This document shows positions 134 to 60,072 of a DNA stretch of 64,000 nt, in pieces. Position 1 is the first letter of the stretch; every line of letters begins with the position of its first letter. The stretch comes from an uncultured virus (IMG/VR IMGVR_UViG_3300005437_000001) (taxonomy: Duplodnaviria; Heunggongvirae; Uroviricota; Caudoviricetes). The stretch lies in the IMG/VR virus record IMGVR_UViG_3300005437_000001, one strand, 5' to 3'. The position numbers and the translations under genes are program-made. The notes below the pieces were generated by a model. The model saw only the letters and a list, made by a program, of their open reading frames with translations, was not told where the DNA came from and ran no database searches.

Positions 134-210
134 GGGTAGGGGAGGGGTCGGCCATGATACGCTGGTTCAGCCTTCAGTATTCGATAGGGACCCGGGAGGG
201 GTGGCGCAGC

Positions 211-1824
211 GTGGCCGACGAGGACGGCGAGCTCGGCCCGGACAATCCGGACCTGATGATGGGCCTGCAGCTGATGGCCGACTCGCTGCCGGACTACCAC
301 CGCGCCGAGATGTACTACGAGGCCACCAACCCGGAGTTCTTTGCCAGCATCCGGCTGCGGCGCGCCCTGGAGCGTACGGGCATCACGTTCAGGTTCAACC
401 TGGCCAAGACCCCGGTCGACGTGATGGCGGACCGCCTGGAGATCAACGCGATCTCGATCCCCGACGACGACGAGGCCGACGCGCTGCTCAAGGACATCTG
501 GACCTACAACCAGATGCAACTGAACGCCACCGACCTGCACCGACGGGCCGGAGAGTTCGGCGACGCGTATCTGATGGTGTGGCCCGCCTCCATCCCTGAG
601 GGGGAGGACGGGCCGGGCGACGAGTCGGTGGACGAGGACCCCGGGTACACCCTGGTCGACATGTTCTACAACAGCCCCAAGACGATGCGGCTGGTGTACG
701 ACACGGAGAACCCGCGCTACAAGCGGTTCGCCATCAAGAAGTGGACGGTCCCGGCCCAGCTGGGCGTGAAGAGCAAGCCGCCGACCCGGATCAACCTGTA
801 CTATCCGGACCGGATCGAGAAGTACATCACCGTGACCAACGCCAAGGGCAACCGGCGGCGGGACTGGATGAGGTATTCCGACCAGGACGACGAGGGGTGG
901 CCGGTGGCCAACCCGTACGGCGAGATCCCGGTGTTCCACTATCGGACCGGGACGCCGTACGGCGATCCCGAGCACCGGGCCGCGTACGGGCCCCAGGACT
1001 GCATTAACAAGCTGATCATCACCCACGCGGCGACGATCGACTATCACGGCTTTCCCCAGCGCTACCTGCTGTCGGAGGCAGGCAACCGGTCGGACGAGCT
1101 GGCCGATTTCGACACCTCGGACGACATCAACCGGTTCGAGGACACCGGGCACGACAGCACCCTACGGTCCGGTCCGGGCGAGGTGTGGTGGCTGAACGGG
1201 GTCAAGCAGGCCGGGCAGTTCAACCCTCCAGATCCGGCCGTGTTCATGACGCCGCTGGACACCTACATCCGGATGATGGCCCAGGTCACCACCACTCCCG
1301 TGCACTACTTCGATCCGCAGACCTACACCCGGCTGCCTCCGTCCGGCGAGTCGATCCGGGCAGCCGAGGTGCCGCTGCTCAAGAAGGTCCAGCGTCGGCA
1401 GATCAGCTACGGATCCACTCACGTCGACGCCATGCGGTTCGCGCTGAAGATCGCCACCTGGGACGGTGAGCAGGCGGGCATCGTCGGGTCCAACATTGTA
1501 ATCCGCTGGACGCCCGGTGCCACGATCGACGATCTGCAGGGGTGGTCGATGATCAAGCTCAAGCAAGACTGCGGCGTGCCGCCCCGCCAGACACTGCTGG
1601 AAGCGGGATACCACGAGGAGCAGGTCGACGCGTGGCTGCCGTACCAGGGCGACGACCTGGGGCAGCGGGTCGACATCCTGACCAAGGTGGCCACGGCGGC
1701 TCAGGCCATGGGCGCGGCCGTGGGGCTGGGCGTGCTGGACGGCGACCAGGTGAACCAGATCATCATGGGCATCCTTAACCTGCCGGAGGAGTCCACCACC
1801 GAGTTCGACGAAGGGACAGCCTGA
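211..1824 (+). CDS. Portal protein (SPP1 gp6-like)
   Basis: About 540 aa; YY near the N-terminus, FNLAKTPVDVMADRL, GDAYLMVW, NPYGEIPVFH, FPQRY and SGESIRAAE are typical actinophage portal motifs; GTG at 211 follows GGGAGG. Confidence 0.9.
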   Translation: MADEDGELGPDNPDLMMGLQLMADSLPDYHRAEMYYEATNPEFFASIRLRRALERTGITFRFNLAKTPVDVMADRLEINAISIPDDDEADALLKDIWTYNQMQLNATDLHRRAGEFGDAYLMVWPASIPEGEDGPGDESVDEDPGYTLVDMFYNSPKTMRLVYDTENPRYKRFAIKKWTVPAQLGVKSKPPTRINLYYPDRIEKYITVTNAKGNRRRDWMRYSDQDDEGWPVANPYGEIPVFHYRTGTPYGDPEHRAAYGPQDCINKLIITHAATIDYHGFPQRYLLSEAGNRSDELADFDTSDDINRFEDTGHDSTLRSGPGEVWWLNGVKQAGQFNPPDPAVFMTPLDTYIRMMAQVTTTPVHYFDPQTYTRLPPSGESIRAAEVPLLKKVQRRQISYGSTHVDAMRFALKIATWDGEQAGIVGSNIVIRWTPGATIDDLQGWSMIKLKQDCGVPPRQTLLEAGYHEEQVDAWLPYQGDDLGQRVDILTKVATAAQAMGAAVGLGVLDGDQVNQIIMGILNLPEESTTEFDEGTA

Positions 1825-1825
1825 C

Positions 1826-2104
1826 ATGCGAGCCAGCGACGGGTACGCCAAGGCGTCGCCCAGCGACACCGACACCCTGCACGGGGCCGGACAGGGCGGC
1901 GCCGTCCTGCACTCCGGCAGCCGCCACCCCGACATCACGTCCAGCACGGCCAAGGGACCGGACGCGGGTATGACGGCCAGCCTCGGGCGCCCGCGCGCCG
2001 CCAGCGACATGTCGGGCAGCACGCCTGAGGACCACGCCGTCGCCCCCGGTCAGCGCACCGTCCTGGCCCCCAAGGGCACCATGACTCCTTCCAAGGTGTA
2101 CTGA
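1826..2104 (+). CDS. Hypothetical protein
   Basis: ORF directly follows the portal stop; GC3-rich codons. Confidence 0.5.
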   Translation: MRASDGYAKASPSDTDTLHGAGQGGAVLHSGSRHPDITSSTAKGPDAGMTASLGRPRAASDMSGSTPEDHAVAPGQRTVLAPKGTMTPSKVY

Positions 2105-2127
2105 CGCCAGCTACCGGATGGATAGAA

Positions 2128-2394
2128 ATGACTGAAACCAGCACCACCACTGAACCCAGGCACGTCTCTCGCGCCAAATTCTACTGCGCCTCGGCAAAGC
2201 GGTTCAGCGCCGACCTTGCGGTGGCGCTGACCGAGTACGAGTTCACCGCTGTGTACGATGACGGCATCGAGGAGAACAAGCGCTTCGCGCGCTACAGCCC
2301 GACCGGCAGGCTGACCATCTCGGTGGACAACCCGGACGTCGAATTTGAGATCGGCAAGTGCTACTACCTGGACTTTGTCGAAGCGAGGCAGTGA
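2128..2394 (+). CDS. Hypothetical phage protein
   Basis: 88-aa ORF (RAKF...ENKRFARYSPTGRL...YYLDF) resembling a widespread small phage family. Confidence 0.7.
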   Translation: MTETSTTTEPRHVSRAKFYCASAKRFSADLAVALTEYEFTAVYDDGIEENKRFARYSPTGRLTISVDNPDVEFEIGKCYYLDFVEARQ

Positions 2395-2645
2395 TGGCCA
2401 AGAACAAGGGCAAGAGCGGCAAGTCGGCGCTGCCGCCGTTCCTGAGCAAGAAGATGGTGGCCAAGCCGGGCAGCGCGGTCGGCGGCCCCAAGCCGGGTGA
2501 TAAGATCGTCGACCCCAAGGACAAGAAGGGCGTCGTCACCTCGGTCAAGAAGGGAAAAGTGTCCGTCGGGCACACCGACGGCACGCGCGACAGCCACGCG
2601 GCGGCGGCCGTCAAGCAGGTCTCACGCGCCCGCAAGGGCAGGTAG
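2394..2645 (+). CDS. Small Lys-rich basic protein with a KOW/SH3-like segment
   Basis: MAKNKGKSGK... with PKPGDKIV...KGVVTSV; start overlaps the upstream stop. Confidence 0.65.
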   Translation: MAKNKGKSGKSALPPFLSKKMVAKPGSAVGGPKPGDKIVDPKDKKGVVTSVKKGKVSVGHTDGTRDSHAAAAVKQVSRARKGR

Positions 2646-2693
2646 GCAGCCACGGAGCCTCTCGGGCCGGTATAATCGGGCCGGGAGGCCGAC

Positions 2694-4801: not shown

Positions 4802-5903
4802 CGCGGCGGGGAACGACCCGCAGGAGGCTGAGGCCGTCCGGCTGACGCTGGCGCAGAACTACGCGGCGGCGGCCGGACTGCTGGCGCTGGAGCACGAGGC
4901 ACGCAGCGCTGCTACCGCCAATCTGAGGACCCTGATACAGCGCCTGTTTCAGCAGATCGCCGGGCGGTACGTCGTGCTGGCCGGGTCGATCGAGCAGCCG
5001 TTGGACGCGGTACAGGCCCAGCAGCTGGTCGGCCAGATCGTGGCCGAGCTGGACGCGCTGCGCCGAATCGATTTCTCCACCCCCCTGGCCCACTATGCCG
5101 ATCTCGCGGTCCGGCGCGGACTGGAGTACGGCAACCGATACGTGTCGCAGCCCGTCCCGGCGGTCGGCCTCAGTCTTCCATCTTCAGTCAGCCAGGCTGT
5201 GGGAGGGGTGGCGCAGGCGGTGGCCGAACGGGTCGATGCGGCCCAGCAGATGGCGCAGTCCCTGGGCGTGTCCGAATTCAAGGACCTGACCGCCGTTCAG
5301 GCCAAGGCGCAGCAGATCTCCACCCCGGTGGACCGGGCGGTGTCGTACGCGATATCGACGGCCAACAGCCACGGGCTGGCCGTGGTGGCCGGACAGCGAG
5401 GCGGCCAGCTGCTGTGGGTGGCCGAGCGGGACGCGTGCGTGGTGTGCCTGGCCCTGTCCGGACACCTGATCGACCCCATGACCGGCGAGGGGTTCGACGA
5501 GGATGCGACCTTCGGGAAGCCGGGGTCGGCTCCGCCGATCTGGCCGCCGGAGATGCCGTTGACCGGGCCGCCCCGGCACAACTTCTGCCGCTGCCACGCC
5601 GAGCTGTGGTTCGGAATGCGCAGCGTCGAGGGCGGACCGCTGGACGGCGCGCTGTACAACCGACCCGACCTGGCGGCGCAGGTCGATCTGCCTGCAGCGC
5701 TGCGGCGCGAGGCCAAGCGGTCGGTACTGCGCGGCTGGAGCCTGCCCAGCGAGTCTCAGGCCGCACGGATCAATGCCGCCGACAGGCTGCTGCGGCGCGG
5801 CGCCGGAATGCCCAAGACGGTAGAGGACCGCGCCCGCCGACAGGTACGGAATAAGCGTTTTGATAGCCGGAGCGTACCGCGCGGTAGCGCGAGGCGCCCT
5901 TGA
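4791..5903 (+). CDS. MuF-like minor head / capsid maturation protein
   Basis: WVAERDACVVCLALSG and PPRHNFCRC motifs; lies between portal and scaffold. Confidence 0.8.
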   Translation: MADDAAGNDPQEAEAVRLTLAQNYAAAAGLLALEHEARSAATANLRTLIQRLFQQIAGRYVVLAGSIEQPLDAVQAQQLVGQIVAELDALRRIDFSTPLAHYADLAVRRGLEYGNRYVSQPVPAVGLSLPSSVSQAVGGVAQAVAERVDAAQQMAQSLGVSEFKDLTAVQAKAQQISTPVDRAVSYAISTANSHGLAVVAGQRGGQLLWVAERDACVVCLALSGHLIDPMTGEGFDEDATFGKPGSAPPIWPPEMPLTGPPRHNFCRCHAELWFGMRSVEGGPLDGALYNRPDLAAQVDLPAALRREAKRSVLRGWSLPSESQAARINAADRLLRRGAGMPKTVEDRARRQVRNKRFDSRSVPRGSARRP

Positions 5904-10385: not shown

Positions 10386-10442
10386 CTGGTAGAATCGCGA
10401 TTCGGTATTCAGTAGGTCAATGACGATGGGAGGGGTGGTGCA

Positions 10443-11294
10443 GTGACCGTCCAGGTCAACCAGGGTCAGACAGCCGATCTGATCGTGCAGTGGTACGCCT
10501 ACCCCAACGGCCCGCTGGCGGACGTGACCGGGCTGACGATCACGGTGAACAGCGCGGCCAGCGGCTCGGCCGTGTTCGGACCGACCTCCTCCGGAGTGAT
10601 CCACCAGGCCACCGGGCTGTACACCTTCCAGTGGGCGGTGTCGACCAGTCAGGCTTCGGGCGACTACATCGCCATCTGGAACGCGACTCTGGGCGGGTCG
10701 GCGGTCCAGACCAGCGAGATCGCCACCGTCCTGCCGTATGACAACTCGGTGTTCCTCACCTGGTGTGACATCACACTGCAGGAGGACCTGATCAACGGTC
10801 AGGGCAATGTGTCGGCCGTCAACCCGGTGACGTTCACTACCAACGTTACAGGTCAAACCGTGACCGCCCAGCAGGTGACCCTGGGCCAGCAGGTGCTCAA
10901 TCAATTCAGCAACTACACCCCCGAGTCGTCCGGGTTCAACATGAACCCGAACGACCTGCACCTGCTGCGCTACGCCATGGCGTACCAGGCGGTGTGGCAG
11001 AAGAGCAAGCCCGGCCTACTGCAACAGGGAAACTACAAGCAGCTGAGCCAGGACGGGCTGTCCGTCACGCTGAACGGCGACGAGGGGGTAGACCGGGCGC
11101 TGATGCTGGCGCCGCTGGCCAGCCGGTGCCTCAAGCAGCTGTCCTGGCAGAAGAGCCGCAGCCTGCGCGTGCGCACGCCGTTCATCGACGATCAGACGCC
11201 CCTGTCCTCCGACCCGGACGCCGAGGCCAACGACCTGTACGAGCGCTGGGTGGACATGTACAGCTTCGGCTACCGTGGAAGCTCGGTGCCGTAG
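10443..11294 (+). CDS. Head-to-tail adaptor with N-terminal Ig-like domain
   Basis: Beta-rich N-terminal half (GLYTFQW, GDYIAIW); C-terminal AMAYQAVW...SQDG...LAPLASRCL; position in the operon. Confidence 0.65.
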   Translation: MTVQVNQGQTADLIVQWYAYPNGPLADVTGLTITVNSAASGSAVFGPTSSGVIHQATGLYTFQWAVSTSQASGDYIAIWNATLGGSAVQTSEIATVLPYDNSVFLTWCDITLQEDLINGQGNVSAVNPVTFTTNVTGQTVTAQQVTLGQQVLNQFSNYTPESSGFNMNPNDLHLLRYAMAYQAVWQKSKPGLLQQGNYKQLSQDGLSVTLNGDEGVDRALMLAPLASRCLKQLSWQKSRSLRVRTPFIDDQTPLSSDPDAEANDLYERWVDMYSFGYRGSSVP

Positions 11295-13277: not shown

Positions 13278-13561
13278 CCTGGCACGAGATCGCCCACCTG
13301 ATGGGACTGGACAATCTGGCCGGATACTGGTACGGGTTCTGGTCCGGCATCGGGTCCATCTTCATCCCGCCGACGCTGACCTCCACACCGATCGTGCTGG
13401 TGATGCTGCGCAGGCACAACTGCCATCAGCATCTGTGCTGGCGTCTGGGCCGACACCCGGTCGAGGGCACCCCGTACGTGCTGTGCCGCAGGCACCACCC
13501 CGAAGTTCCCGACCAGGTGTCGGCGGAGCAGATCGCCGACGCGATGGATGGGGTGGCGTAG
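13274..13561 (+). CDS. Small membrane protein
   Basis: WYGFWSGIG hydrophobic segment and CH..CWR.G.H...C..HH tail. Confidence 0.65.
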   Translation: MTWHEIAHLMGLDNLAGYWYGFWSGIGSIFIPPTLTSTPIVLVMLRRHNCHQHLCWRLGRHPVEGTPYVLCRRHHPEVPDQVSAEQIADAMDGVA

Positions 13562-15591: not shown

Positions 15592-16001
15592 CGGACCGCC
15601 TGCGGTCGGTCGCCTGGATCGTCGATCTTCTCGACGAGGTGGAGTCCGACCTCAGCGTGTTCCATCGGATAGACGACATGCTGGAGATGCCAGCAGTCCG
15701 GTTCGTGAAGTTCGCCGAGCGGCTGCCCGCGTACACGGGCGCCGTCCAGGCCAGGCTACGGATGCTGCACCCCTCACCACCCCCCACGGCGCCCGATTCA
15801 GGACTGAATATTCAGTCAGAGCCGGAGGGGGTGGCGCAGGGTGGCGCGCCGGTCGCGTGGGCCGGGACACTGGAGAACCCGCACGAGGTGGTAATGCCCG
15901 GTAAGTACCGTGACCGCAAGGATGTCACGGTGGTGCCGATGAACAGGCAAGCGCTACAGGCCTCCGAACTCAGGGAGTTTCTGAGCTTCGGATACGGATA
16001 G
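15588..16001 (+). CDS. Tail assembly chaperone, frameshift extension (T)
   Basis: ESDLSVFHRI...RLPAYTGAV motif; in the -1 frame to the upstream chaperone. Confidence 0.75.
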   Translation: MTDRLRSVAWIVDLLDEVESDLSVFHRIDDMLEMPAVRFVKFAERLPAYTGAVQARLRMLHPSPPPTAPDSGLNIQSEPEGVAQGGAPVAWAGTLENPHEVVMPGKYRDRKDVTVVPMNRQALQASELREFLSFGYG

Positions 16002-20303: not shown

Positions 20304-20341
20304 CGGTTCAGTCGGACACGCTGGCGGAGGGGGTGGCGTAG

Positions 20342-39169: not shown

Positions 39170-39208
39170 CGCTGGACGGCCGGTCAAGGGGCATGGTGGA
39201 CTGCGCCC

Positions 39209-39406
39209 ATGGCAGACGAGAGGCACCACTACCACCGCGCCGAGCGGTACCTAGCCGAGAGCGAGCTGGTGCGCGGGACGTCCCGGGAGACCGCTCTGCT
39301 TATCCGGGCACTGTCCCACGCCACTCTGGCCCAGGTGGCCCTCCAGGCCAAGCAGGTAGATAGCAAGACGCACCGCTGCCTGCTGTCGCCGCCGGACGAG
39401 ATCTGA
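39209..39406 (+). CDS. Hypothetical protein
   Basis: HY..AE..L...A..HATLA motif. Confidence 0.55.
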   Translation: MADERHHYHRAERYLAESELVRGTSRETALLIRALSHATLAQVALQAKQVDSKTHRCLLSPPDEI

Positions 39407-39419
39407 CGGCCTCCGGCCC

Positions 39420-39449
39420 TTGACACCCTGACAAATCGGACGATAGACT
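39420..39449 (+). promoter_or_regulatory. Promoter and operator of the helicase gene
   Basis: TTGACA-18-TAGACT; operator TTGAC-ACCCT-GACAA; ATG 7 nt downstream. Confidence 0.75.
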
Positions 39450-39455
39450 ACTCCT

Positions 39456-41402
39456 ATGACTTCCATTCAGAGCTGGCACGAGGCCGAAGCGGCCCTGACC
39501 GAGCAGTGGCCCGGGTTCTCCGTGCGTCCGCAGCAACGTCGGATGGCTGAGGCCGTGCAGCTGACCGTCCGGGGCGAGGCCAAGCACCGAGTCCTGCTGG
39601 CGCAGGCAGGCTGCGGCGTCGGCAAGAGCCTGGGCTACCTGATCCCCATCATCGCGCAGGCCCTGCGCGTCCGCAAGCGCGTGGTCGTCAGCGTCAGCAC
39701 CAAGGCGCTGCAGGACCAGATCGCGGGCAAGGACCTGCCGACCCTGCGCGATACGCTGTTCCCCGAGCTGACCTTCGCCGTTCTGAAGGGGCGCAGCAAC
39801 TACGTCTGCCTGCGCGAGGCCGACAAGAACGGCGGCGCCTACGTCAAGGAGGGCACCGACGGCGAGCGGCAGGACCTGGTGCAGCCGGTCGACGACCGCG
39901 AGTGGCGCGAGCTGACCACCGACGCCGAGGGCTGCATCGGGCGCAAGCGCTGCCCGTTCGGCCGGGAGTGCTACTCGGAGCGGGCCAAGTCCCGCGCTCT
40001 GCGCGCCACGGTCCTGGTCGTGAACACCAGCCTATTGACCCAGGACCTGCGTCTGCGCGCGATGACCAACGGCGCGGCCGGAATCCTGGGCGAGTACGAC
40101 TACCTGGTGGTGGACGAGGCCCACGAGATGCCCTCCATCGTCGCCGACGGACTGACGGTGTCGGTCACCCTGGGACGAATCCTGAACACCTGCTCCCGGA
40201 TCGAGGGCCACTACCCGGACGCAGCCCAGAAGGCGGTCGACGAGCTGCGCGACCGGGCCGCCACCTGGTTCGGCCGCCTGCAGCGATTCTTCGAGGACAA
40301 CCCCAAGTCCCGCACGGCCGAGCTGGACGTCGACGACCAGGCCGAGGCCGCCCGCCTGACCGACCTGCTGCGCACGATCGACACGGCGGCCCAGGACGCC
40401 GACTGCCGGTGCGAGGACCCCGAGCCGGACGAGGACGGCGAGATCGACCGCGTCTGCGAGTTCGCGCGCCGGGTGGACGGGCTGACGGCGGACATGTCCG
40501 GCTTCAGTCGGAACACGGACCATGGGGGGGTGACGTGGATGGAGGCAGGGCGCGGCGGCCGGGTCGAGATGAAGATCGCCCCGGTCGAGGTCGGCGGCTT
40601 CCTGCACGCGGCCGTGTGGGAGCTGGGCAAGCCGACCGTCCTGACCAGCGCCACCCTGGGCATAAACGGCGACGTGACCTACGTGGCCCGCCGGGCCGGA
40701 CTGTCCAAGTACGACAGCCTGGATGTCGGCACGCCCTTCGACTACTCGAAGCAGGCCCGGCTGATGCTGCCCCCGTCGGACGCCCCGATGCCCAGGGACC
40801 CGCACTGGCGCGGATGGGCCCAGGACCAGATGTACGACCTGGTCCTGGTGTCGGGCGGCGGCGCGCTGCTGCTGTTCACCAGCACCTCGGCCATGCGCGA
40901 GGCGCACGACGCGCTGCGCCCCCGGCTGGGCAGGCACGGGCTCCCGGTATTCCTGCAGGGCGCCGGTACGCCCAACCGTGAGCTGGCCCGCCAGTTCGCC
41001 GATCACGCCGACTCGGTCCTGTTCGCCACCCGCAGCTTCTTCACGGGCGTCGACTTCGCCGGGGACACCTGCCGCCTGGTCGTGATCGACAAGATGCCGT
41101 TCCCCGTCCCGGACGACCCGGTGTTCAAGGCCCGGTGCGCCCTTACGGTCAAGCGGTTCGGCAAGGGGTCGGACTTCCGCCGGGTCAGCATCCCCGAGAT
41201 GTCGCTGGTCCTGATCCAGGCGTTCGGCCGCCTAATCCGGTCGGTCGACGACGCCGGAGCGGTCGCCATCCTGGACCCGCGCATGCGGGCCGGGTGGGCG
41301 TCGGCGGTACGCCGCGCCCTGCCCCCCGCCCCGCTGGTGTCGTCGGTGGACGAGGTCGCCGCCTTCTTCGCCGGGCTGCGCTCGGCGCGGGGTGCGGACT
41401 GA
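39456..41402 (+). CDS. dinG: DinG/YoaA-family Fe-S SF2 helicase
   Basis: RPQQ Q-motif, AGCGVGKS, KGRSNYVC, Fe-S cysteines, DEAH, TSATL, LFTS and QAFGRLIR. Confidence 0.92.
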   Translation: MTSIQSWHEAEAALTEQWPGFSVRPQQRRMAEAVQLTVRGEAKHRVLLAQAGCGVGKSLGYLIPIIAQALRVRKRVVVSVSTKALQDQIAGKDLPTLRDTLFPELTFAVLKGRSNYVCLREADKNGGAYVKEGTDGERQDLVQPVDDREWRELTTDAEGCIGRKRCPFGRECYSERAKSRALRATVLVVNTSLLTQDLRLRAMTNGAAGILGEYDYLVVDEAHEMPSIVADGLTVSVTLGRILNTCSRIEGHYPDAAQKAVDELRDRAATWFGRLQRFFEDNPKSRTAELDVDDQAEAARLTDLLRTIDTAAQDADCRCEDPEPDEDGEIDRVCEFARRVDGLTADMSGFSRNTDHGGVTWMEAGRGGRVEMKIAPVEVGGFLHAAVWELGKPTVLTSATLGINGDVTYVARRAGLSKYDSLDVGTPFDYSKQARLMLPPSDAPMPRDPHWRGWAQDQMYDLVLVSGGGALLLFTSTSAMREAHDALRPRLGRHGLPVFLQGAGTPNRELARQFADHADSVLFATRSFFTGVDFAGDTCRLVVIDKMPFPVPDDPVFKARCALTVKRFGKGSDFRRVSIPEMSLVLIQAFGRLIRSVDDAGAVAILDPRMRAGWASAVRRALPPAPLVSSVDEVAAFFAGLRSARGAD

Positions 41403-42693: not shown

Positions 42694-43014
42694 ATGTACT
42701 TGCCCGACACCCAGCGCAAGGCGCTGCACGACATCCGCCGGACGGTGGACGCCGTGGCCCGGGACGATCAGCGCTACAGCGACATCCCGGTGGTGGCCGA
42801 CACCCGGGACCACCGGCGCTGCACCTTCGGCGCGGCCGGGAAGTCCTACAGCTGCACCATGCTGATGTTCAAGCGGCTGGCCCAGAACGGCATGATCACC
42901 CTGCACGTCGGCAGGCGACCGGCCACGCACGAGATCCGGCTGACCCCCCAGGGCGTCCGGCGGACCACGGTCAGTGTTCAGTCGGAAGCGGACGCGGGAG
43001 GGGTGGCGCAGTGA
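42694..43014 (+). CDS. Hypothetical (winged-helix-like) protein
   Basis: L...Q..AL ... RL..NG.I ... RLTPQG. Confidence 0.5.
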   Translation: MYLPDTQRKALHDIRRTVDAVARDDQRYSDIPVVADTRDHRRCTFGAAGKSYSCTMLMFKRLAQNGMITLHVGRRPATHEIRLTPQGVRRTTVSVQSEADAGGVAQ

Positions 43015-47760: not shown

Positions 47761-50006
47761 GCGGGACAACGGTTCAGTCGGACATGGTGGTGGGTGGGGT
47801 GGCGCTGCCGGACCTGCCGCCCGGGTGGCCGGTGTTGTTCGACACCGAGGGCTCCGGCCTGCACCCCGACGGCGACCCCGGTACCGACACCAACATGCAG
47901 AAGAGCAGTCCACCGGCCCGGGTCAGTGCGGCGAGCGTGGCGTGGATGGACCCCGACACGGGCGAGATCCACAGCCACGCCTGGCCGTTCGACCAGGGCC
48001 CCATGGTCGGCAAGCCGGGCCGGATCCGCCGTCCGAGGGACGGCGGGGGGTACCCGCTGCTGACCCAGGAGGATGTCGACAAGATCTTGTCGAAGTTCCG
48101 CGTCCCCGGGGACGCGGTACCGGCGCCGGGGGAGGACATGGTCGGCGAGGTGCCGGACCGGCCGATGACCTACGAGGAGGCCTGCCCCAACCTGGGGCTG
48201 GAACACTGGATCAACCTGCTGCGGTGGCTGCGGGCGCGCGACTACATCGTGATGCACAACGCCAAGCACGACCTGACCGTGGCCACGGTGGGCCCGCGCG
48301 AGGAGATCGCCCGGGACCAGTGGCTGCACAACCCCCGGCTGCGCGCCGAGTTCAGCCCGCAGGCCCAGCAGGCGATCGACCCGATCCTGTGGGGAGACGA
48401 CCCGCTCGGCCCCGTATTCGGGCTGGACATCGACAAGCACTGCCCCAATACCAAGCTGGCCGACACGATGCTGATCCAGGCGCTGCTGGATCCGCTGCAC
48501 CCGGTGGCCCTGAAGCGGACCGCCCGCCGGATCTGGGGCGAGGACAGCACCCGGGAGGAGGAGGAGCTGGCCGCCGCGCTCAAGAAACTGGGCGTCGGCC
48601 TGACCAAGCGGTACGACCTGATCCCCTGGCCGATCATCGGCCCATACGCGGCCCGGGACGCAGAGCTTGCCCTGATGCTGCTGTACCGCCAGATCGCCCG
48701 GATCGAGCAGGGCGACGCCCCGCCCGGGGCCTGGGACCAGATCGACAAGGACATCGACCTGATGCGGGTGCTGTATCGGATGCAGCGCCGGGGCATGAGC
48801 TACGACGCCAAGACCAGCATGCAGGCGGCGGCCGACCTCCAGGCCGAGATGGACAACATCGCCCGAGATCTGCCGTTCGACCCGGCCAAGGTCCAGGAGG
48901 TCGGCCGGTACTACTTCGGGGCCAAGGAGGACGGCGGGCGCGGGCTGACGCCCATCAAGGTCACCGACAAGCGCCGGGACCCGTGCGTGGACGAGGCCCA
49001 GATCCGGCTGCTGGTCCAGGACGGCGAGCCGTACGCGGCCGAGTACGACGACTGGTCGCACTGCAAGAGCGCGCTGGGCAAGTGGTACCGGGGCTGGGCG
49101 ATGCGGACCGGCCCGGACGGACGGCTGCGCACCGACTTCATGCAGACCGCCATCGAGTCGGACCGGCCCGGCGCCCCCAAGGGCGGGGCGATCTCCGGCC
49201 GCCTGGCCGTCTCCCGGGTCCAGCTGCAGGCTATCCCCCACTTCAATCAGCTGCCCGACGTGGTCAAGGACCGACCGGTCCGGGGCCTGATCGGCGCGCG
49301 GCCCGGCTACGCCTTGTGGGAGATGGACCTGCCCCAGGGCGAGGTCCGTATCGCGACGGTGGTGACCGGCTGCTCTGCCATGTGGGACGTGATCGACTCG
49401 GGCGAGGACCTGCACGGCGCCAACGCCAAGCGGATCTGGGGGATCCTGGAGACCGACCCCACCTTCCAGGACCTGCGGGGCGTCGGCAAGCGGGTCACAT
49501 TCGGCACCATGTACGGCGCTGGTATCGACACGCTGCGCGCCCAGATCCTGGAGTACACGGGCCTGGAGTACAGCCGCAGGGAGACGGCCGAGGCACGCGA
49601 CGCGTTCTACGCCCAGTTCCCCGAGTTCCGCACCGTGCCGTACCGGATCCAGTGCAAGGCCGACAAGGGGCTGGGCGGAGTCGGCTACGTCACCCTGATC
49701 GACGGGCGGCGCCGCTGGTTCGGTCCGGACGAGCACACGCATAAGGCGTTCAACGCGGTCATCCAGGGCGACCTGGCCCAGACCGGCAAGACCTGGATGA
49801 TCCAGGTCGAGCGGGAGCTGCCGGGCATCCAGGTGCTGGCCATCCACGACAGCATGGTGGTCGAGGTGCCGGACACCGACGCGGGCTACTCTCTCGCCCA
49901 GCAGGCGGCGGCCATCGGCACGGAGATCTACGAGCGCGACTACTCGGTCCGTGGCCGCAAGATGTCCTTCCCGATCGTCCCCGAGCGCTGGAAGGCCACC
50001 AAGTGA
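47757..50006 (+). CDS. Family A DNA polymerase with 3'-5' exonuclease (candidate DpoZ)
   Basis: Exo motifs FDTEG, HNAKHD and YAARDA; polymerase motifs SGRL, DLPQGEVR (A), RGVGKRVTFGTMYG (B) and IHDS (C). Confidence 0.92.
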   Translation: MSGTTVQSDMVVGGVALPDLPPGWPVLFDTEGSGLHPDGDPGTDTNMQKSSPPARVSAASVAWMDPDTGEIHSHAWPFDQGPMVGKPGRIRRPRDGGGYPLLTQEDVDKILSKFRVPGDAVPAPGEDMVGEVPDRPMTYEEACPNLGLEHWINLLRWLRARDYIVMHNAKHDLTVATVGPREEIARDQWLHNPRLRAEFSPQAQQAIDPILWGDDPLGPVFGLDIDKHCPNTKLADTMLIQALLDPLHPVALKRTARRIWGEDSTREEEELAAALKKLGVGLTKRYDLIPWPIIGPYAARDAELALMLLYRQIARIEQGDAPPGAWDQIDKDIDLMRVLYRMQRRGMSYDAKTSMQAAADLQAEMDNIARDLPFDPAKVQEVGRYYFGAKEDGGRGLTPIKVTDKRRDPCVDEAQIRLLVQDGEPYAAEYDDWSHCKSALGKWYRGWAMRTGPDGRLRTDFMQTAIESDRPGAPKGGAISGRLAVSRVQLQAIPHFNQLPDVVKDRPVRGLIGARPGYALWEMDLPQGEVRIATVVTGCSAMWDVIDSGEDLHGANAKRIWGILETDPTFQDLRGVGKRVTFGTMYGAGIDTLRAQILEYTGLEYSRRETAEARDAFYAQFPEFRTVPYRIQCKADKGLGGVGYVTLIDGRRRWFGPDEHTHKAFNAVIQGDLAQTGKTWMIQVERELPGIQVLAIHDSMVVEVPDTDAGYSLAQQAAAIGTEIYERDYSVRGRKMSFPIVPERWKATK

Positions 50007-51042: not shown

Positions 51043-51434
51043 GCTTCATCAACCCGGAAGACTACGCACCCGGCGCGCGGCCCCAGCGGGTGCAGATCGG
51101 GCGCAAGAATCCAGAGGGACTGGTCCTGATCGGAGAATTCGGCGGTCAGACTGCCGTGGCGGGGCTGGACTGGAACGGCGTACACGCGTTGATAGCGGAC
51201 CTGAATCAGGCACTGTGGGAGAGGGGAAGGTGGCTGCAGGATGAGCGGCGGCGCGCACAGACAGATCTTGACGGAGAGCAGTCCGGGAGGGGTGGTGCTG
51301 TTCCGTTCGGACCTGAGCGAGCAGCTGACCCTGGACTGGGACGAGGTGTTCAAGCTGGTGGGTCTGCTGGCTGACGAGTCGCGCAAGCGCAAGGATATGC
51401 TGGAGCGGGAGCTGGCCCGGTGGGTGAGGCAGGG

Positions 51435-53296: not shown

Positions 53297-53850
53297 CCAG
53301 TCATGACTACACCGAGCTTCCCGGCACTTGGTGGAGCGTGGACCCGGGCGACGTTCACGTCGGGCTGGCCGAGTGGCGCGGAGCGGTGTGCGTGGCGGCT
53401 ACCGAGACCTCGCCCACCCTGTTCGAGGACCGGCTCATGGAGGTGTGTCGCGGGACACCTAGAGCGGTTCAATGGGCCGAGGCGGTGGGAGGGGTGGCGC
53501 TGCCGGACCTGGTGATCATCGAGCGGTTCGCCCTGCGGGGCGAGTTCATGGCCCAGCAGCAGGGCAGCGAGTTCCTGACCAGCCAGATGATCGGGTCCAC
53601 CCGGTTCATCTGCCGCTGGTTCGGCAAGCCGCTGGTCATCCAGACTCCCGACCAGCACAAGCTGGTACTGAAGCGCGACCCGTGGCGGGACTGGCCGCAG
53701 CGCAGGTTCAAGTCCTACGGACACGGCCCGCACGCCAAGTCGGCCGAGCTGCACGGGTACTTCTTCATAGAGAGCGTCCTGCGCAGGCAGGGGGCGGCGG
53801 CACTGGAGGCGTGGAAGCGGACGATACGTCCGGCGCCCCGCACCGGATAG
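53284..53850 (+). CDS. RuvC-like (RNase H fold) resolvase
   Basis: SVDPG..HVGLA, DLVIIE.F and SQMIG; C-terminal H...A..H. Confidence 0.7.
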   Translation: MARLASHDYTELPGTWWSVDPGDVHVGLAEWRGAVCVAATETSPTLFEDRLMEVCRGTPRAVQWAEAVGGVALPDLVIIERFALRGEFMAQQQGSEFLTSQMIGSTRFICRWFGKPLVIQTPDQHKLVLKRDPWRDWPQRRFKSYGHGPHAKSAELHGYFFIESVLRRQGAAALEAWKRTIRPAPRTG

Positions 53851-56068: not shown

Positions 56069-56970
56069 TGGTGTATCTGGCCAGGCCGATCGATCTGGCC
56101 GACGGGCTGCCCAACTGGCTGTACGACGCGGCCAGCATGGTCGAGGACGAGCTGGTGCTGGGGCAGCACGACGTGTACCGCCCCGCCCACGCGTTCCGGG
56201 CCGGTGAGGTGAGCGCGGCCATCCAGCATGTGAACGAGTTCGCGCTTGCGTCGGCCCGAGGGGGGGTGGCGCTGTTGCCTGCCGGGGTGCCGACCCTGGG
56301 GACGCCGGACGAGATCGCCCAGCTGGTCCGGTCGGCCCGGCCGTCCCTGATCGTGACCGACATCGAGGTGTCGGCCGTCCTGCGGTCCTGGGAGCGGTGG
56401 ACCCACGTCAAGGTGGTGTACCCGGACGTGGGCGAGATCAAGGCGGGCGCCGCGTGGATGCTGGAGCAGCTGGCCCTGCTGGAGCGATTCGACGGCGACC
56501 GCCGCCCGCTGGTGTTCGAGCCGGTGGCTACCGACACGCTGACCCAGGTGTCCGAGGTCGGCGGGACGCTGCGGTCCCTGCTGCCGGTGCGCGGGTACCC
56601 GGACGACGCCGGGCTGGACCTGATCGTGAGCACCGACACCGAGGTACCGGCGGGCGCGTTCGTCGACGTGCCCAGCGGAGTCAAGGTGGACCTGCCGCAC
56701 GGGACGTGGGCGATGATCACCGGTCGCTCGTCGTCGCTGCGGCGCCGGAACCTGCTGGTCAGCACCGGAGTCATCGACGCCGGGTGGACCGGCGAGCTGT
56801 TCGCCGGGGTCAAGAACCTAGGCGATACGGACACCGTGCTGGCGGCGGGCGACCGGATCGCCCAGCTGATCCTGCTGCCCGCGCCGGTCGTGGACTACGT
56901 GCCGCGCTGGGGGCAGGTCCGCACCGACAAGTCGCGCGGCGTCAACGGATTCGGGTCGAGCGGTGCCTGA
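56068..56970 (+). CDS. Nucleoside deoxyribosyltransferase-like domain fused to trimeric dUTPase domain
   Basis: N-terminal VYLARPID...TLGTPDEI; C-terminal DAGLDL, GRSS, GVIDAGWTGE, DRIAQL and RG.NGFGSSG. Confidence 0.8.
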   Translation: MVYLARPIDLADGLPNWLYDAASMVEDELVLGQHDVYRPAHAFRAGEVSAAIQHVNEFALASARGGVALLPAGVPTLGTPDEIAQLVRSARPSLIVTDIEVSAVLRSWERWTHVKVVYPDVGEIKAGAAWMLEQLALLERFDGDRRPLVFEPVATDTLTQVSEVGGTLRSLLPVRGYPDDAGLDLIVSTDTEVPAGAFVDVPSGVKVDLPHGTWAMITGRSSSLRRRNLLVSTGVIDAGWTGELFAGVKNLGDTDTVLAAGDRIAQLILLPAPVVDYVPRWGQVRTDKSRGVNGFGSSGA

Positions 56971-58951: not shown

Positions 58952-58980
58952 TTGACAGACGGTCAAGGTCCTGGTTTAAT
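58952..58980 (+). promoter_or_regulatory. Strong promoter with perfect operator
   Basis: TTGACA-17-TTTAAT; operator TTGAC-AGACG-GTCAA. Confidence 0.78.
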
Positions 58981-59025
58981 TTTAAGTGTGGGGCCGACGG
59001 GCGGCCCCCGCGAGAGGAGGCCGAC

Positions 59026-59382
59026 ATGGGCGAGAACGAGCTGAGTCGGGACCAGGTCGAGTGGGCGTGCGGGACGTACTTCACCAACCTGACCATGACC
59101 AGGGCGCGCGTGGCCGACGAGCTGGCGCGCGGGCAGATGGTCAGCTCGCATAACCTGGGCTCGCTGCTCAAGGCCCAGGCCGATTGGAAGCTGTACGGCA
59201 AGCTGCAGTCCGATGAGGCCTACCGGTACGATCTGGTGGGTGCCCTGCGCGAGACGGTGAAGGAGGCCAGCCGGATCCTGCGGAATACCGGCCGCCACAC
59301 CGACGCGGTGGACCGGGCGCAGGCCGAGTTCGAGCGCCACGCGGCGGCAGCGTTCCTGAACACGTGGGAGCAGTACCTGTAG
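59026..59382 (+). CDS. Hypothetical protein
   Basis: GAGGAGG RBS. Confidence 0.65.
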   Translation: MGENELSRDQVEWACGTYFTNLTMTRARVADELARGQMVSSHNLGSLLKAQADWKLYGKLQSDEAYRYDLVGALRETVKEASRILRNTGRHTDAVDRAQAEFERHAAAAFLNTWEQYL

Positions 59383-59391
59383 AGCATAGAC

Positions 59392-59433
59392 GGCGGCGCC
59401 CCGGACCCGTGGTGGGAGGTCTGGGGCGCCGCC
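59392..59433. terminator. Hairpin between convergent genes
   Basis: GGCGGCGCCCC.GACC...GGTC.GGGGCGCCGCC. Confidence 0.65.
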
Positions 59434-59461
59434 TTGCCGGTCTCTGGGCGGTACCAGTGTA

Positions 59462-59644
59462 TCAGTCGGAGACGACCAGCGTGAGCTTGCCCTTGGTGAT
59501 CTTGCGGATGTCGGCCACCTGCAGGCCGTTCTGCGAGAACGCGGCCTCCAGGGCGGTCTGCATGCCCTCGGCGGTGTAGGGCTCGCCGTACAGGGCGGTG
59601 TCCTTCTCGTCGTCGGTCTCCACGACGATGGCGAATCTGGCCAC
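59462..59644 (-). CDS. Hypothetical protein
   Basis: AGGAGG RBS and GTG start; minus-strand promoter and operator at 59687-59715. Confidence 0.65.
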   Translation of the reverse strand: MARFAIVVETDDEKDTALYGEPYTAEGMQTALEAAFSQNGLQVADIRKITKGKLTLVVSD

Positions 59645-60072
59645 GGTGTCCTCCTGGTGTGGTAGTGAGTGCCGCTGCACAGGACCACGGTACACTACCC
59701 TTGTCAGTCTGGCAAGTCTCCCGGGCCGTCCGCGCACGGCTGCACGATGGTCCGGCCGCGCGGGGGCGGCGGTACGTCGGCGTCCTCGCGGGCGGCACAG
59801 CGCAGGGCGGCACGCGCGGACCGCCAGGTCGCCGCCGCCGCGTGGGCCATCACGTCCGGATCCAGGGTGGACTCCCCCCTGACGTCCAGCTGGTCGGCGA
59901 CGACCTCGACGCGGGGGCCGGAGTCGGACTCGTAGATCTTGACGGCGATCAAGAGACCTCGATTCAGTGGTCGATATGGCATGGGAGGGGTGGCGCAGGA
60001 CGGGCGCCACCCCACCACACTCCTTGCGCGGTCGTCCAGTGCTACCCACCGTGCGGCTGGTACCATGGGAGC

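Follow-up and report, generated by a model that had tools for sequence, protein, structure and literature searches.

A strand-polar, regularly spaced G-rich element in an actinophage genome and its relatives

Background

Start-associated sequences (SAS) and extended SAS (ESAS) occur in Cluster K mycobacteriophages and Cluster EF Microbacterium phages (PMC3203893, PMC7302621). According to the sections of these reports that deal with them, an SAS is a conserved, asymmetric sequence 13-16 nt long that contains a Shine-Dalgarno core and is present in 10-19 copies that nearly all share one orientation; virtually all copies are found 3-7 bp upstream of a start codon and in the non-structural arm only, function is unassigned, and the Cluster K ESAS consists of two imperfect inverted repeats of 17 bp separated by a spacer of variable length (PMC3203893, PMC7302621). 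The element described here, found in a 64,000-nt stretch of phage DNA (the whole of which is referred to as the window), resembles SAS in its asymmetry, its Shine-Dalgarno core, its single prevailing orientation, its occasional overlap with an upstream stop codon and the presence of a second element just upstream. It differs in that only 5 of 19 copies precede a start codon, in its genome-wide span and in the 11 copies that lie within genes; its upstream box is a single hexamer whose distance is fixed at 17-18 nt, unlike the paired repeats of the Cluster K ESAS, and those sections report neither regular spacing nor transcription-independent polarity for SAS.

Other systems share some of these properties. 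The stoperators of Cluster A mycobacteriophages are 13-bp asymmetric sites with a lineage-specific consensus, found in tens of copies near gene boundaries; their orientation follows transcription, and a temperate phage's immunity repressor reads them. The present element is likewise asymmetric, multi-copy and lineage-specific in consensus, but in relatives its sites keep to one strand even where gene blocks are transcribed the opposite way, and the window and 12 kb outside it yielded neither an integrase nor a recognisable immunity repressor. Chi and the FtsK-orienting KOPS are host motifs of 5-8 nt that are abundant on the chromosome, flip at the origin and are read by a DNA-tracking machine. 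They share with the phage element a G-rich, strand-polar, over-represented sequence that is tolerated in genes, whereas the phage motif is 12-16 nt long (36 nt with its second box), phage-specific, unenriched in 301 bacterial genomes and does not flip.

Among priming signals, T7 primase sites are very frequent and 3-5 nt long, and ssi signals (ssiA and ssiB of RSF1010, with the RepB′ primase) are structured hairpins found once or twice per origin. The likeness here lies in a strand-specific sequence and in an archaeo-eukaryotic-type primase encoded in the phage module; the sites themselves differ in being long, unstructured, dispersed and evenly spaced, and no priming sites of that kind are known to us or came to light in literature searches. 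Finally, lambda Q loading sites and the ops elements of RfaH occur once per operon and close to the promoter, where a polymerase pause lets a processivity factor load. The phage element similarly places a -10-like or G-rich non-template sequence in transcribed DNA, but does so in many copies, and no Q-, RfaH- or NusG-like gene was detected.

Composition and spacing of the element

The window makes up most of the ~76 kb, high-GC genome of an uncultured actinophage, among whose genes is a replication module with PrimPol, PolA and PurZ. Along it, an element of ~36 bases recurs every 4-5 kb on a nearly constant strand, and consists of TTCAGT, a spacer of 17-18 nt and GGGAGGGGTGGCGCAG (the G-box). 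There are 15 bipartite copies (13 on the plus strand and two on the minus strand), which with four G-box-only copies bring the total to 19 (Table 1). Every position given in the preliminary description contains a copy; in detail, the core at 40503 is GGGGTGA rather than GGGGTGG, the upstream box at 53468 is TTCAAT, and the exact TTCAGT of the copy placed at 28698 begins at 28691. Literature searches yielded no described motif that matches the element, which had not been recognised earlier either.

The distance between boxes is 17-26 nt over the 15 copies and 23-24 nt in 10 of them, that is, one hexamer plus 17-18 nt. Three short distances (17, 17 and 18 nt) are accompanied by an extra box-like hexamer 7-8 nt further upstream (CTCAGT, GTCAGT and CTGAAT), from which the distance becomes 24-25 nt. 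When folded as RNA, 14 copies had no structure in common, and z fell below -2 in only one.

With up to three mismatches, GGGAGGGGTGGCGCAG has 21 matches in the window (16 plus, 5 minus), as compared with 3.87 expected and a maximum of 10 in 100 dinucleotide shuffles. Synonymous-codon shuffles (n = 100) covered all called genes and kept intergenic DNA unchanged; they gave a mean of 5.9 and a maximum of 9 G-boxes with up to two mismatches against 13 observed, and a mean of 4.6 and a maximum of 7 bipartite patterns against 15 observed, so that the proposed co-occurrence of the two boxes holds up against codon-preserving shuffles. Linkage is strongest on the plus strand, where GGGGTGR lies 15-28 nt after 11 of 14 TTCAGT, versus 3 of 10 on the minus strand. 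The 13 plus-strand bipartite copies are separated by a mean gap of 4982 nt with a CV of 0.28, the first five gaps being 5007, 5227, 5396, 4502 and 4968 nt, and none of 20000 random placements was equally regular, which confirms the previously noted ~5-kb periodicity. Pattern-defined plus-strand sets in three related genomes, G002, G003 and G004, have CVs of 0.72, 0.59 and 0.57, respectively (P = 0.008, 0.001 and 0.0004). Shuffle excess, linkage, spacing, conservation and rare codons all support the earlier view that the copies form a system of cis-acting sites on which selection acts at the level of nucleic acid.

Table 1. Copies of the element and phage genes discussed in the text (positions in the window)
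Feature	Position	Strand	Context
Bipartite	173..209	+	Divergent intergenic region ahead of portal gene; GTG start 211; orthologues use same start codon
Bipartite	5183..5216	+	Within gene 4791-5903; peptide SVSQAVGGVAQ; L037 counterpart at identical codons, G002 counterpart ~100 nt upstream
Bipartite	10408..10443	+	G-box is putative ribosome-binding site of gene 10443-11294; G002 G-box at same start
G-box only	13546..13561	+	Overlaps stop of gene 13274-13561, precedes GTG 13562; box and G-box here in L037
Bipartite	15811..15839	+	Tail-chaperone region, ~190 nt ahead of tape-measure gene; strong hairpin with upstream CCACCCC (z = -3.5); G002 site at comparable distance ahead of its tape-measure gene
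Bipartite	20307..20341	+	Between stop 20303 and GTG 20342 (958-aa tail gene); G-box at this start also in G002, G003, G004
Bipartite	25281..25309	+	Convergent junction past late operon, just beyond inverted repeat; points into minus-strand block
Bipartite	26831..26866	-	Within minus-strand glycosyltransferase gene, sense
Bipartite	28691..28735	+	TTCAGT then TTCAGG; leader of rightward early region; ATG 28756
Bipartite	32478..32507	+	Within gene 31938-32690
Bipartite	36810..36845	-	Within PrimPol gene, antisense
G-box only	37575..37590	+	Within PrimPol gene
Bipartite	40503..40538	+	Within helicase gene; core GGGGTGA
Bipartite	42977..43011	+	G-box ahead of GTG 43011 (49-aa ORF)
Bipartite	47773..47807	+	Within first codons of PolA gene
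G-box only	51285..51300	+	G-box matches
Bipartite (TTCAAT)	53468..53502	+	Within gene 53338-53850; 21 nt in common with 47796 copy
G-box only	56259..56274	+	Within dUTPase-domain gene; G004 G-box at same codons
Bipartite	59963..59998	+	TTCAGT is -10 of predicted host-type promoter; G-box pairs with 60004-60013 as hairpin
Replication/recombination genes	33547..41402	+	Exonuclease, Sak4-like annealase, PrimPol, helicase; presence tracks motif across relatives
PolA	47757-50006		Same replication/recombination set
PurZ-like	53947-55098		Same replication/recombination set
ECF-type sigma	62438-63010		Phage-encoded
HTH_3 protein	30334-30639		Phage-encoded

Genes, codons and start sites

The statement that most copies lie inside genes stands by a narrow margin: 11 of 19 are intragenic, 5 immediately precede a start codon and 3 occupy non-coding DNA (leaders or junctions). 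In-gene copies encode (V)GGVA(Q/L) with rare codons. Among serine codons AGT makes up 3.7% and TCA 2.6%, GTT accounts for 3.7% of valine codons, and GGA and GGG for 11% and 23% of glycine codons; these values bear out the suggestion that the element forces GGVA peptides and atypical codons.

In the 5 start-adjacent copies the start codon lies 11-13 nt past the first G of GGGGTGG, and the G-box appears also to act as the Shine-Dalgarno sequence of at least 5 genes, a role that the preliminary description had missed. This placement, together with a core that presumably can pair with the 3′-end of 16S rRNA, would be expected if the G-box were an extended Shine-Dalgarno sequence or a 30S-binding mRNA stabiliser, the copies within genes being secondary. 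Start-adjacent sites in G002-G004 are enriched 3-5 times relative to random positions, L037 has GGGGAGGTGGCGCA before two orthologous starts, and in G006 plain GGGAGGTG replaces the G-box of other phages. Under a strict test, however, few sites are start-adjacent (3/31 in the window, 7/67 in G002, 8/42 in G003 and 3/44 in G004), the major capsid gene has no copy upstream, and the conserved CGCAG or TGTAG falls outside any 16S rRNA pairing. Neither the regular spacing nor the plus polarity within minus-strand blocks is expected of a translation signal, and we regard such a primary function as improbable.

Polarity and conservation in related phages

In G002-G004 there is a G-box variant, GGGCGGGGGTGGTGTAG, at 33-58 sites in each genome. 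It stands without the TTCAGT box, a TTCA-like hexamer being present 21-27 nt upstream of just 4 of 130 sites. This single-box version, which had escaped earlier notice, is far commoner in the related phages. At a PWM score of at least 16, 105 sites lie on the plus strand and 25 on the minus strand. The bias is independent of transcription: plus and minus sites number 57 and 14 within plus-strand genes, 10 and 1 within minus-strand genes, and 6 and 0 between two minus-strand genes, so that 16 of 17 sites in minus-strand gene blocks are on the plus strand (Fisher test, P = 8e-6 for genes alone and P = 5e-9 with those intergenic sites included). The test rests on these relatives, as the window itself has two relevant copies, one sense within a minus-strand gene (26842) and one antisense (25298).

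This polarity, the main evidence added here, argues against ordinary promoters and against stoperator-like operators, that is, scattered asymmetric repressor sites that block elongating polymerase. Copy number and asymmetry do match those of Cluster A stoperators, two G002 sites flank, by eye, a leftward sigma-70-like promoter ahead of the portal gene, and the phage encodes an HTH_3 protein; yet orientation in relatives ignores transcription, regular spacing is not a stoperator feature, and, as noted above, neither an integrase nor a recognisable repressor was found; we regard this account as highly improbable. The list of functions first offered was broad. The polarity leaves either DNA-level options (priming, nicks, packaging or translocation) or elongation-control sites read by a transcript that encircles the genome.

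Among relatives ~77% identical to G002, full conservation is seen at 18 of 30 aligned sites, versus 16-19% of all 9-mers (binomial P = 1.5e-7). Despite a protein identity of ~50%, the window and G002-G004 have sites in common at the gene starts 10443 and 20342, ahead of the tape-measure gene, at the convergent junction and in the early leader. Hairpins of inverted G-box pairs at convergent junctions resemble terminators. Gene content follows the motif: both it and the window's replication module are present in G002, G003 and G004, while G005 and a 65 kb MAG contig, whose virion genes are similar (portal 65-74% identical), have other replication modules in place of that one and no sites at a PWM score of at least 16.

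Likeness to transcription signals

TTCAGT resembles the phage's own -10 hexamers (TACAGT, TTTAAT and TTTACT), a likeness not previously remarked on, and forms the -10 of a canonical promoter at 59939-59968 (TTGACG, 18 nt, TTCAGT). It also aligns with TGgTTCAAT upstream of the portal gene, which is conserved in G002, G003 and G006 (TGaTTCAAT in G004). The element might on these grounds be a phage-specific promoter and ribosome-binding cassette, in which TTCAGT and the G-box are the two promoter elements or TTCAGT is a -10 by itself; RNA polymerase, perhaps with the phage ECF-type sigma, would start transcripts every few kb, and the G-box would serve as leader and Shine-Dalgarno sequence. A hexamer plus 17-18 nt is promoter geometry, three copies lie in operon-leading intergenic regions, and no sigma-70-type promoter with A at position 2 was found along the 25 kb late operon on its plus strand. 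What makes a promoter cassette unlikely is that no -35 is conserved upstream of TTCAGT in an alignment of 15 copies, the 59963 copy alone pairing it with a TTGACA-like hexamer (5/6 match) at 16-19 nt; that the G-box of G002-G004 lacks the upstream box and in minus-strand blocks is antisense in 16 of 17 cases; that the sigma gene is missing from G002 and G004, the genomes richest in sites; and that the 25281 copy would fire into an antisense block and the 36810 copy is antisense. We also know of no sigma consensus that matches GGGGTGG as a -10.

Alternatively, the copies could control elongation, for example as sigma-dependent pause sites or antiterminator reload sites. The non-template -10-like hexamer would pause polymerase, the G-box would recruit or retain a processivity factor, and the repeats would let one long rightward transcript encircle the genome. 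Most copies are indeed a -10-like box without a -35 in transcribed DNA, with an asymmetric G-rich 12-16-mer on the non-template strand; they recur regularly along the 25 kb operon, one lies just beyond a terminator-like hairpin, and plus polarity would be expected if late transcription crosses minus-strand blocks. Such read-through must, however, pass the terminator-like hairpins at convergent junctions, sites in G002-G004 have no -10-like box, and no candidate factor of the NusG, RfaH or Q type was detected, so we consider this quite unlikely. The element may still act in transcription, as a promoter, a pause site or an antitermination site, and the Shine-Dalgarno-like core and the -10 likeness of TTCAGT hint at roles at the level of expression.

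Scarcity in bacterial genomes

GGGGTGGYG is not over-represented in a 6.7 Mb MAG that holds a related phage contig (355 versus 267 for the control), nor is the motif over-represented in any of 301 Actinomycetes genomes. Among those with at least 50 matches, GGGGGTGGTG reached at most ~2.4 times the control and ~1 per 33 kb, as compared with 55 in the 77 kb of G002 (control, 2). The motif is phage-specific and is not a motif of host genomes.

These data bear on Chi-like or nuclease-control sites, at which a host- or phage-encoded helicase-nuclease would be switched from degradation to recombination after entering from a free end, either the end of a permuted genome that is injected first or the tail of a rolling circle. 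Overlaps of 64-123 nt close the assembled contigs into circles, and sites of a single genome-wide polarity are spread so evenly that any permuted end would lie near one. The G-rich core contains GGTGG, like E. coli Chi, and a PD-(D/E)XK exonuclease and a DinG-like helicase are among the proteins of the module whose presence goes with the motif. Such sites are nonetheless improbable, given the bacterial counts, the much shorter length of known Chi sites and a second box that has no parallel in Chi. Programmed single-strand nicks in virion DNA, of the T5 type, in which a phage enzyme cuts one strand, would account for sites that are strand-specific, fixed in position and long and asymmetric in consensus, but known nick systems have few, irregularly placed sites and no nickase candidate was recognised; we rate them as very improbable. 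We therefore do not take the element for a mere start-associated sequence, a stoperator or a host Chi site.

A possible role in replication or recombination

Plus polarity in relatives, even spacing and the lack of enrichment in 301 actinobacterial genomes make the G-box a phage-specific, strand-polar, regularly spaced signal. Our preferred reading, which is tentative and may well be wrong, is a strand-specific DNA site for the phage replication or recombination machinery, for example for priming or reloading, that serves as a Shine-Dalgarno sequence at gene starts. The G-box would have been inherited with the replication/recombination module (PrimPol-helicase, second helicase, PolA, exonuclease, Sak4-like annealase and PurZ), the proteins of which are candidate readers. 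This machinery would recognise one strand of the site and start or restart DNA synthesis there, through priming or reloading of the replisome on the strand whose synthesis is invariably discontinuous in rolling-circle replication. Fragment starts would then be fixed in the genome at intervals of about 4-5 kb in the window phage and 1.5-2.5 kb in relatives. If plus-strand placement at set intervals is required, the site may have settled where its cost is least, namely at ribosome-binding sites (where a GGAGG-like core could double as Shine-Dalgarno sequence), at gene junctions and in one tolerant reading frame (Gly-Gly-Val-Ala). The lineage of the window phage may have acquired a second contact, TTCAGT, 17-18 nt upstream, making the site longer and the copies fewer and more regular.

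It is with low confidence that we infer action on DNA, a reader encoded in the replication module and priming as the act. The link with the module may reflect one evolutionary event and is thus weak evidence of a functional tie, and we know of no lagging-strand primase that requires a site of at least 12 nt. The minimum of cumulative GC skew falls near 28-32 kb, and a region resembling an origin is found at 38.8-39.2 kb; were replication bidirectional from there, the left arm's plus-strand sites would sit on the wrong template for priming of the lagging strand. In Streptomyces phage Hiyaa, whose PrimPol, PolA and PurZ module is similar, the dispersed G-box is absent, and a G-rich repeat, GGGGGTAAC, clusters at two loci instead.

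Composition and spacing of the motif

The 16-nt G-box consensus, which holds GGAGG-like cores of the Shine-Dalgarno type, matches the window at 21 places when up to three mismatches are allowed (16 on the plus and 5 on the minus strand), as against a mean of 3.9 and a maximum of 10 in shuffled sequence. There are 15 bipartite copies (13 plus, 2 minus) and four with the G-box alone; each stands where the preliminary description had placed it, once minor details at 28691, 40527 and 53468 are corrected. GGGGTG(G/A) lies 15-28 nt downstream of 11 of the 14 plus-strand occurrences of TTCAGT, and TTCAGT and GGGGTGG stand 23-24 nt apart in 10 of the 15 bipartite copies, or 17-18 nt when measured from the end of the hexamer. 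The three copies with shorter spacing each have another box-like hexamer 7-8 nt farther upstream; counted from that one, the distance is again 24-25 nt, and all 15 gaps then fall within 16-20 nt. The upstream box reads TTCAGT(c)GG, and some copies carry a direct partial repeat of it 7 nt further upstream.

The counts also exceed those of codon-preserving shuffles, the comparison on which the preliminary description had staked the motif. With codons shuffled synonymously and intergenic DNA kept unchanged, the G-box was found on average 5.9 times (maximum 9; 13 observed) and the bipartite pattern 4.6 times (maximum 7; 15 observed). A protein-level cause was rejected, since in-gene copies vanish under this shuffling. 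These copies read (V)GGVA(Q/L) and are written in rare codons (AGT 3.7%, TCA 2.6%, GTT 3.7%, GGA 11%). The same 21 bases (GGGGTGGCGCTGCCGGACCTG) stand at 47796-47816 and 53491-53511 and encode the peptide GVALPDL, once in PolA and once in a 170-aa protein unrelated to it. A shared RNA structure was also considered and set aside: among 14 folded copies z ranged from -3.5 to +1.7, only one fell below -2, and a common fold was absent.

The regular spacing of about 5 kb held up as well. The 13 plus-strand copies have a coefficient of variation (CV) of 0.28, none of 20000 random placements was as even, and the first five gaps measure 4.5-5.4 kb. In the 12 kb outside the window, two further plus-strand bipartite copies and one G-box-only copy follow at similar intervals.

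The phage genome

The near-identical IMG/VR contig G001 joins both ends of the window in a circular map of about 76 kb, and the window is therefore most of one phage genome, with a G+C content of 66-71%. The contig 'repeats' were considered as true terminal repeats, which would mark the genome ends, and rejected, being assembly overlaps of 64-123 nt within genes. Genes were called with a GC3-based caller made for this analysis, and their start codons are approximate (see table). The closest GenBank phages are distant Streptomyces phages, with PolA 37-38% identical to that of Hiyaa and Keanu and the capsid protein 51% identical to that of Zuko; PolA and capsid queries returned only distant Streptomyces and Microbacterium phages, and Megablast and one tblastn query returned nothing from GenBank phages.

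Genes and promoters of the window, with (-) marking minus-strand promoters
Feature	Coordinates	Orientation	Remarks
Portal	211-1824		siphovirus-type virion operon
Scaffold			virion operon
Major capsid protein	7051-7986		virion operon
Tail tube			virion operon
Tape measure			virion operon; 1007 aa
Glycosyltransferase, NAD-dependent epimerase, conserved unknown gene	25282-28395	leftward, minus strand	block after virion operon
PD-(D/E)XK exonuclease	33547-34416	rightward	early and replication region
Sak4-like annealase		rightward	early and replication region
PrimPol	36312-38822	rightward	early and replication region
DinG-type helicase	39456-41402	rightward	early and replication region
LuxR-like protein	47386-47760	rightward	early and replication region
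PolA	47757-50006	rightward	early and replication region
PurZ-type adenylosuccinate synthetase	53947-55098	rightward	phrog_1211 match, E = 2e-76
dUTPase-domain protein		rightward	early and replication region
ECF-type sigma factor	62438-63010	rightward	early and replication region
Host-type promoters	109(-), 30300, 39420, 50245, 57200, 58950, 59692(-), 59940, 61840(-)		about nine, all intergenic

The glycosyltransferase and epimerase block is kept in all relatives examined that have homologous regions. The PurZ-type protein has PolA, PrimPol and the dUTPase-domain gene as neighbours, and the phage DNA probably carries 2-aminoadenine in place of adenine. A Prok-JAB (MPN) protein is encoded at 51435-51854, and a Multiubiquitin-domain protein in the 12 kb beyond the window (G001, L070:1218-1799); together they may form a ubiquitin-like phage system. 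The PrimPol gene is followed by about 390 nt of non-coding DNA (38822-39210) with CACAAC direct and inverted repeats and hairpins, which is likely a replication origin. The G-box was rejected as an origin iteron, as this stretch has the CACAAC repeats and no G-box.

Position of the copies among the genes

The preliminary description had most copies inside genes, which is narrowly right (11 of 19); of the other eight, five precede starts and three lie in non-coding DNA. In the five, a GTG start lies 11-13 nt past the first G of GGGGTGG (portal 211, 10443, 13562, 20342 and 43011); the three occupy the convergent junction (25298), the early leader (28724) and a leader at 59987. The intragenic copies comprise ten in sense and one in antisense orientation (36821), and coding through those at 5205, 47796 (the first PolA codons), 53491, 56263 and 26842 is supported by orthologues. 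Six copies lie in the portal-to-tail operon.

The G-box clearly doubles as a ribosome-binding site at some genes. At orthologous gene starts where the window has a G-box, the related locus L037 has GGGGAGGTGGCGCA and G006, a related phage genome, has plain GGGAGGTG. Under a strict test, start-adjacent sites make up 3 of 31 in the window, and 7 of 67, 8 of 42 and 3 of 44 in the related phage genomes G002, G003 and G004. A motif that is there for translation, which the start-adjacent copies and the Shine-Dalgarno core would suit, is improbable as a general account.

The motif in related phages

Relatives were drawn from an IMG/VR portal search (portal identity 65-78%). L037 (portal 78%) has copies at four orthologous places, with TTGACT, TTGAAT or CTGAAT as first box and GGGGGGGTGGCGCAG or GGGGAGGTGGCGCA as G-box; a G-box variant there with a Shine-Dalgarno-type core is GGGGAGGTGG. 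G002, G003 and G004 (about 75-77 kb each) carry GGGCGGGGGTGGTGTAG at 33-58 sites per genome (PWM score at least 16), and a conserved upstream box was looked for in these three without success. The 10-mer GGGGGTGGTG occurs 55, 28 and 36 times in the three genomes, and its reverse 2, 0 and 1 times. Their plus-strand sites are spaced more evenly than chance (CV 0.57-0.72, P = 0.0004-0.008); the evenness is weaker when both strands are counted (P = 0.013-0.058).

Several positions are common to the window and its relatives, namely the orthologue starts at 10443 and 20342, the convergent junction, the early leader and a site 160-190 nt upstream of the tape-measure gene. The G002 orthologue of the gene at 4791-5903 also has a site, displaced by about 100 nt from that of the window, in the same neighbourhood and in other codons. 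In relatives with about 77% identity to G002, 30 sites could be aligned and 18 of them are conserved in full, compared with 16-19% of all 9-mers; at two more distant loci the figure is 0 of 8. A scan of viral sequences with PolA for further relatives of the window type yielded only near-identical or G002-type contigs. Among the at least 120 loci listed in a metagenome pattern scan, filtered for phage type by GC above 0.62 and a G-rich context, none qualified except L189, which looks like chance.

Strand polarity

G002-G004 together have 105 plus-strand and 25 minus-strand sites. Within plus-strand genes the sites number 57 plus and 14 minus, within minus-strand genes 10 plus and 1 minus, and between two minus-strand genes 6 plus and 0 minus, so that 16 of the 17 sites in minus-strand blocks are antisense. 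Fisher's test gives P = 8e-6, or 5e-9 when these intergenic sites are counted. Minus-strand genes oppose the sense bias that coding tolerance would produce, and the motif therefore keeps to one genome strand regardless of local transcription. One minus-block site, G002 34538, is also present in the motif-free 65 kb contig from an Actinocrinis metagenome-assembled genome (MAG) and is probably merely a conserved His-His-Pro coding stretch; dropping it leaves the result unchanged. The evidence for polarity is that of G002-G004, as the window holds too few minus-strand genes and copies to tell.

Motif-free relatives and host genomes

The window and G002-G004 have in common the exonuclease, the Sak4-like protein, PrimPol, the helicase, PolA, the PurZ-like protein, the dUTPase-domain protein and several unknowns; for two unannotated genes of this module the Protein Atlas gave nothing usable. 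The virion genes of G005 (a complete genome) and of the Actinocrinis-MAG contig are equally similar; the replication genes just listed are absent from both, as are G-box sites. G006 (75% complete) is represented by a contig without the replication module and has two sites. The correlation between motif and module could stem from one event. A similar module occurs in Hiyaa, where no dispersed G-box accompanies it, so PurZ by itself can do without the motif.

The motif shares strand polarity with Chi, and a Chi-like recombination signal of the host was weighed on that ground. Over-representation in the host chromosome was not found in the genomes sampled, outside which the true host may lie: GGGGTGGYG occurs 355 times in the Actinocrinis MAG as against 267 for the control, and, among 301 Actinomycetes genomes, those with at least 50 matches reach at most about 2.4 times the control and at most about one match per 33 kb. 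Eight of the 301 are flagged as unpublished (G269, G013, G042, G036, G049, G038, G030 and G021); they entered only as motif counts, and the conclusion holds without them. With no enrichment in these bacteria, a Chi site of the host is disfavoured; a Chi-like role in general is improbable.

The first box and the promoters of the phage

Most host-type promoters of the window have the -35 hexamer within a palindrome (cTTGACA, 4-5 nt, TCAAG) that may be an operator, and in three a short GC hairpin follows in the leader. Among the -10 hexamers of the whole set are TGgTTTAAT (twice), TTTACT, TACAGT and TTCAGT. In the promoter at 59939-59968 (TTGACG, 18 nt, TTCAGT) the TTCAGT is itself the first box of the 59963 copy; upstream of the portal gene, TGgTTCAAT is conserved in G002, G003 and G006 (TGaTTCAAT in G004), where the window has TGgTTCAGccTTCAGT; and about 18 Hiyaa promoters follow the pattern TTGCGC, 18 nt, TGnTTTAAT. 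TTCAGT thus looks like a -10 hexamer of this phage group rather than a -35. Across the 15 bipartite copies no conserved -35 was found upstream of TTCAGT, and only the 59963 copy has a TTGACA-like hexamer at promoter distance.

The two boxes, 17-18 nt apart in 10 of 15 copies, are spaced like those of a sigma-dependent promoter (16-19 nt); they match no known sigma consensus. GGGGTGG is not known to resemble any -10 element, that of ECF sigma factors among them. The phage's own sigma factor was rejected as the general reader, as its gene is absent from G002 and G004.

T rather than A stands at the second -10 position in TGgTTTAAT, TTTACT and TTCAGT (57221, 58975, 59963 and 61840(-)), and likewise in the approximately 18 promoters of Hiyaa, itself a PurZ phage (loci L077 and L078). 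Such hexamers may reflect promoter adaptation to 2-aminoadenine DNA.

Comparison with described actinophage motifs

The closest described elements are the start-associated sequences (SAS) and ESAS of Cluster K and EF actinophages, which share with this motif an asymmetric sequence with a Shine-Dalgarno core and a second, upstream element. Repeated asymmetric motifs are familiar from actinophages (SAS/ESAS, stoperators), most of them, SAS and ESAS included, without a known function. SAS are defined by their place 3-7 bp ahead of a start codon in the non-structural arm, which nearly all copies occupy (PMC3203893, PMC7302621), whereas only 5 of the 19 window copies adjoin a start and six lie in the portal-to-tail operon. 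The Cluster K ESAS consists of two imperfect inverted repeats of 17 bp separated by a variable spacer, unlike the one TTCAGT(c)GG box found here, whose distance is fixed at 17-18 nt. Cluster A stoperators follow transcription, in contrast to the antisense sites of the minus-strand blocks in G002-G004; Pfam, PHROGs and NCBIfam revealed one small HTH_3 protein (30334-30639) and no integrase or recognisable repressor, with many ORFs left unannotated. In the literature searched on start-associated sequences, Hiyaa, PurZ and promoters, and strand-biased phage motifs, no description of the motif was found. It belongs among the repeated asymmetric actinophage motifs, of which no described member is reported to show periodicity, genome-wide polarity or a link to a replication module.

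A signal possibly read in one direction

A start-associated sequence, an ordinary promoter and a stoperator are all disfavoured by the one-strand rule seen in the relatives, by the evenness of the spacing and by a placement that ignores coding context. To what is known of repeated actinophage motifs this one adds three properties measurable in sequence, namely near-periodic spacing, adherence to one strand despite opposite genes and co-inheritance with the PrimPol, PolA and PurZ module, and these point to a machine travelling the whole genome one way. The best fit is a signal in the DNA for such a machine, which the co-inherited module would encode.

If that machine is the replisome, the site would serve strand-specific priming or replisome reloading as replication rolls round the circle, would be parked at the least costly positions and, through its Shine-Dalgarno-like core, could double as a ribosome-binding site. 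This role in rolling-circle replication is the favoured reading, at low confidence. Against it, the GC-skew minimum near 30 kb and the origin-like region at 38.8-39.2 kb would accord with bidirectional replication, to which the one-strand pattern is ill suited, and the -10-like first box points to RNA polymerase. The wider proposition, that the clade encodes the starts of discontinuous synthesis or replisome reloading in long, strand-specific, regular sites read by its own PrimPol-helicase module and merged with Shine-Dalgarno sequences, is less probable. Were it correct, one motif would serve both replication and translation and there would be a sequence-coded Okazaki pattern, which is not known from any replicon. 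A role as programmed nick sites is improbable.

The transcription-level readings, even taken together, are less likely than not. The -10-like first box speaks for them, and a pause or antitermination role would be rescued if a long rightward transcript reads through the minus-strand blocks. With the replisome as reader the signal would amount to a new organisation of lagging-strand synthesis, and with RNA polymerase to a distributed processivity signal of a new kind, and either finding would aid the annotation of a large group of uncultured soil phages.

Other repeats and hairpins

Hiyaa has two clusters of GGGGGTAAC iterons (L077 36861-37198 and L078, record 79821-80178), one of them directly 3' of the primase gene. 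These iterons, clustered and not dispersed, are probably two origins. The Actinocrinis-MAG contig has a cluster of about ten palindromic TGACCGGAACTCCAGTTCCGGTCA iterons (L079-L082, approximately 34.55-34.80 kb in the orientation used here), and in G005 copies of a motif around TGTGACTATCTGTCA are scattered about equally over both strands (8-12 per 9-mer). In the window, the G-box and a nearby CCACCCC form a strong hairpin at 59987-60013 and at 15777-15835. Convergent gene junctions of G002-G004 carry inverted pairs of G-boxes that form long hairpins and probably act as terminators.
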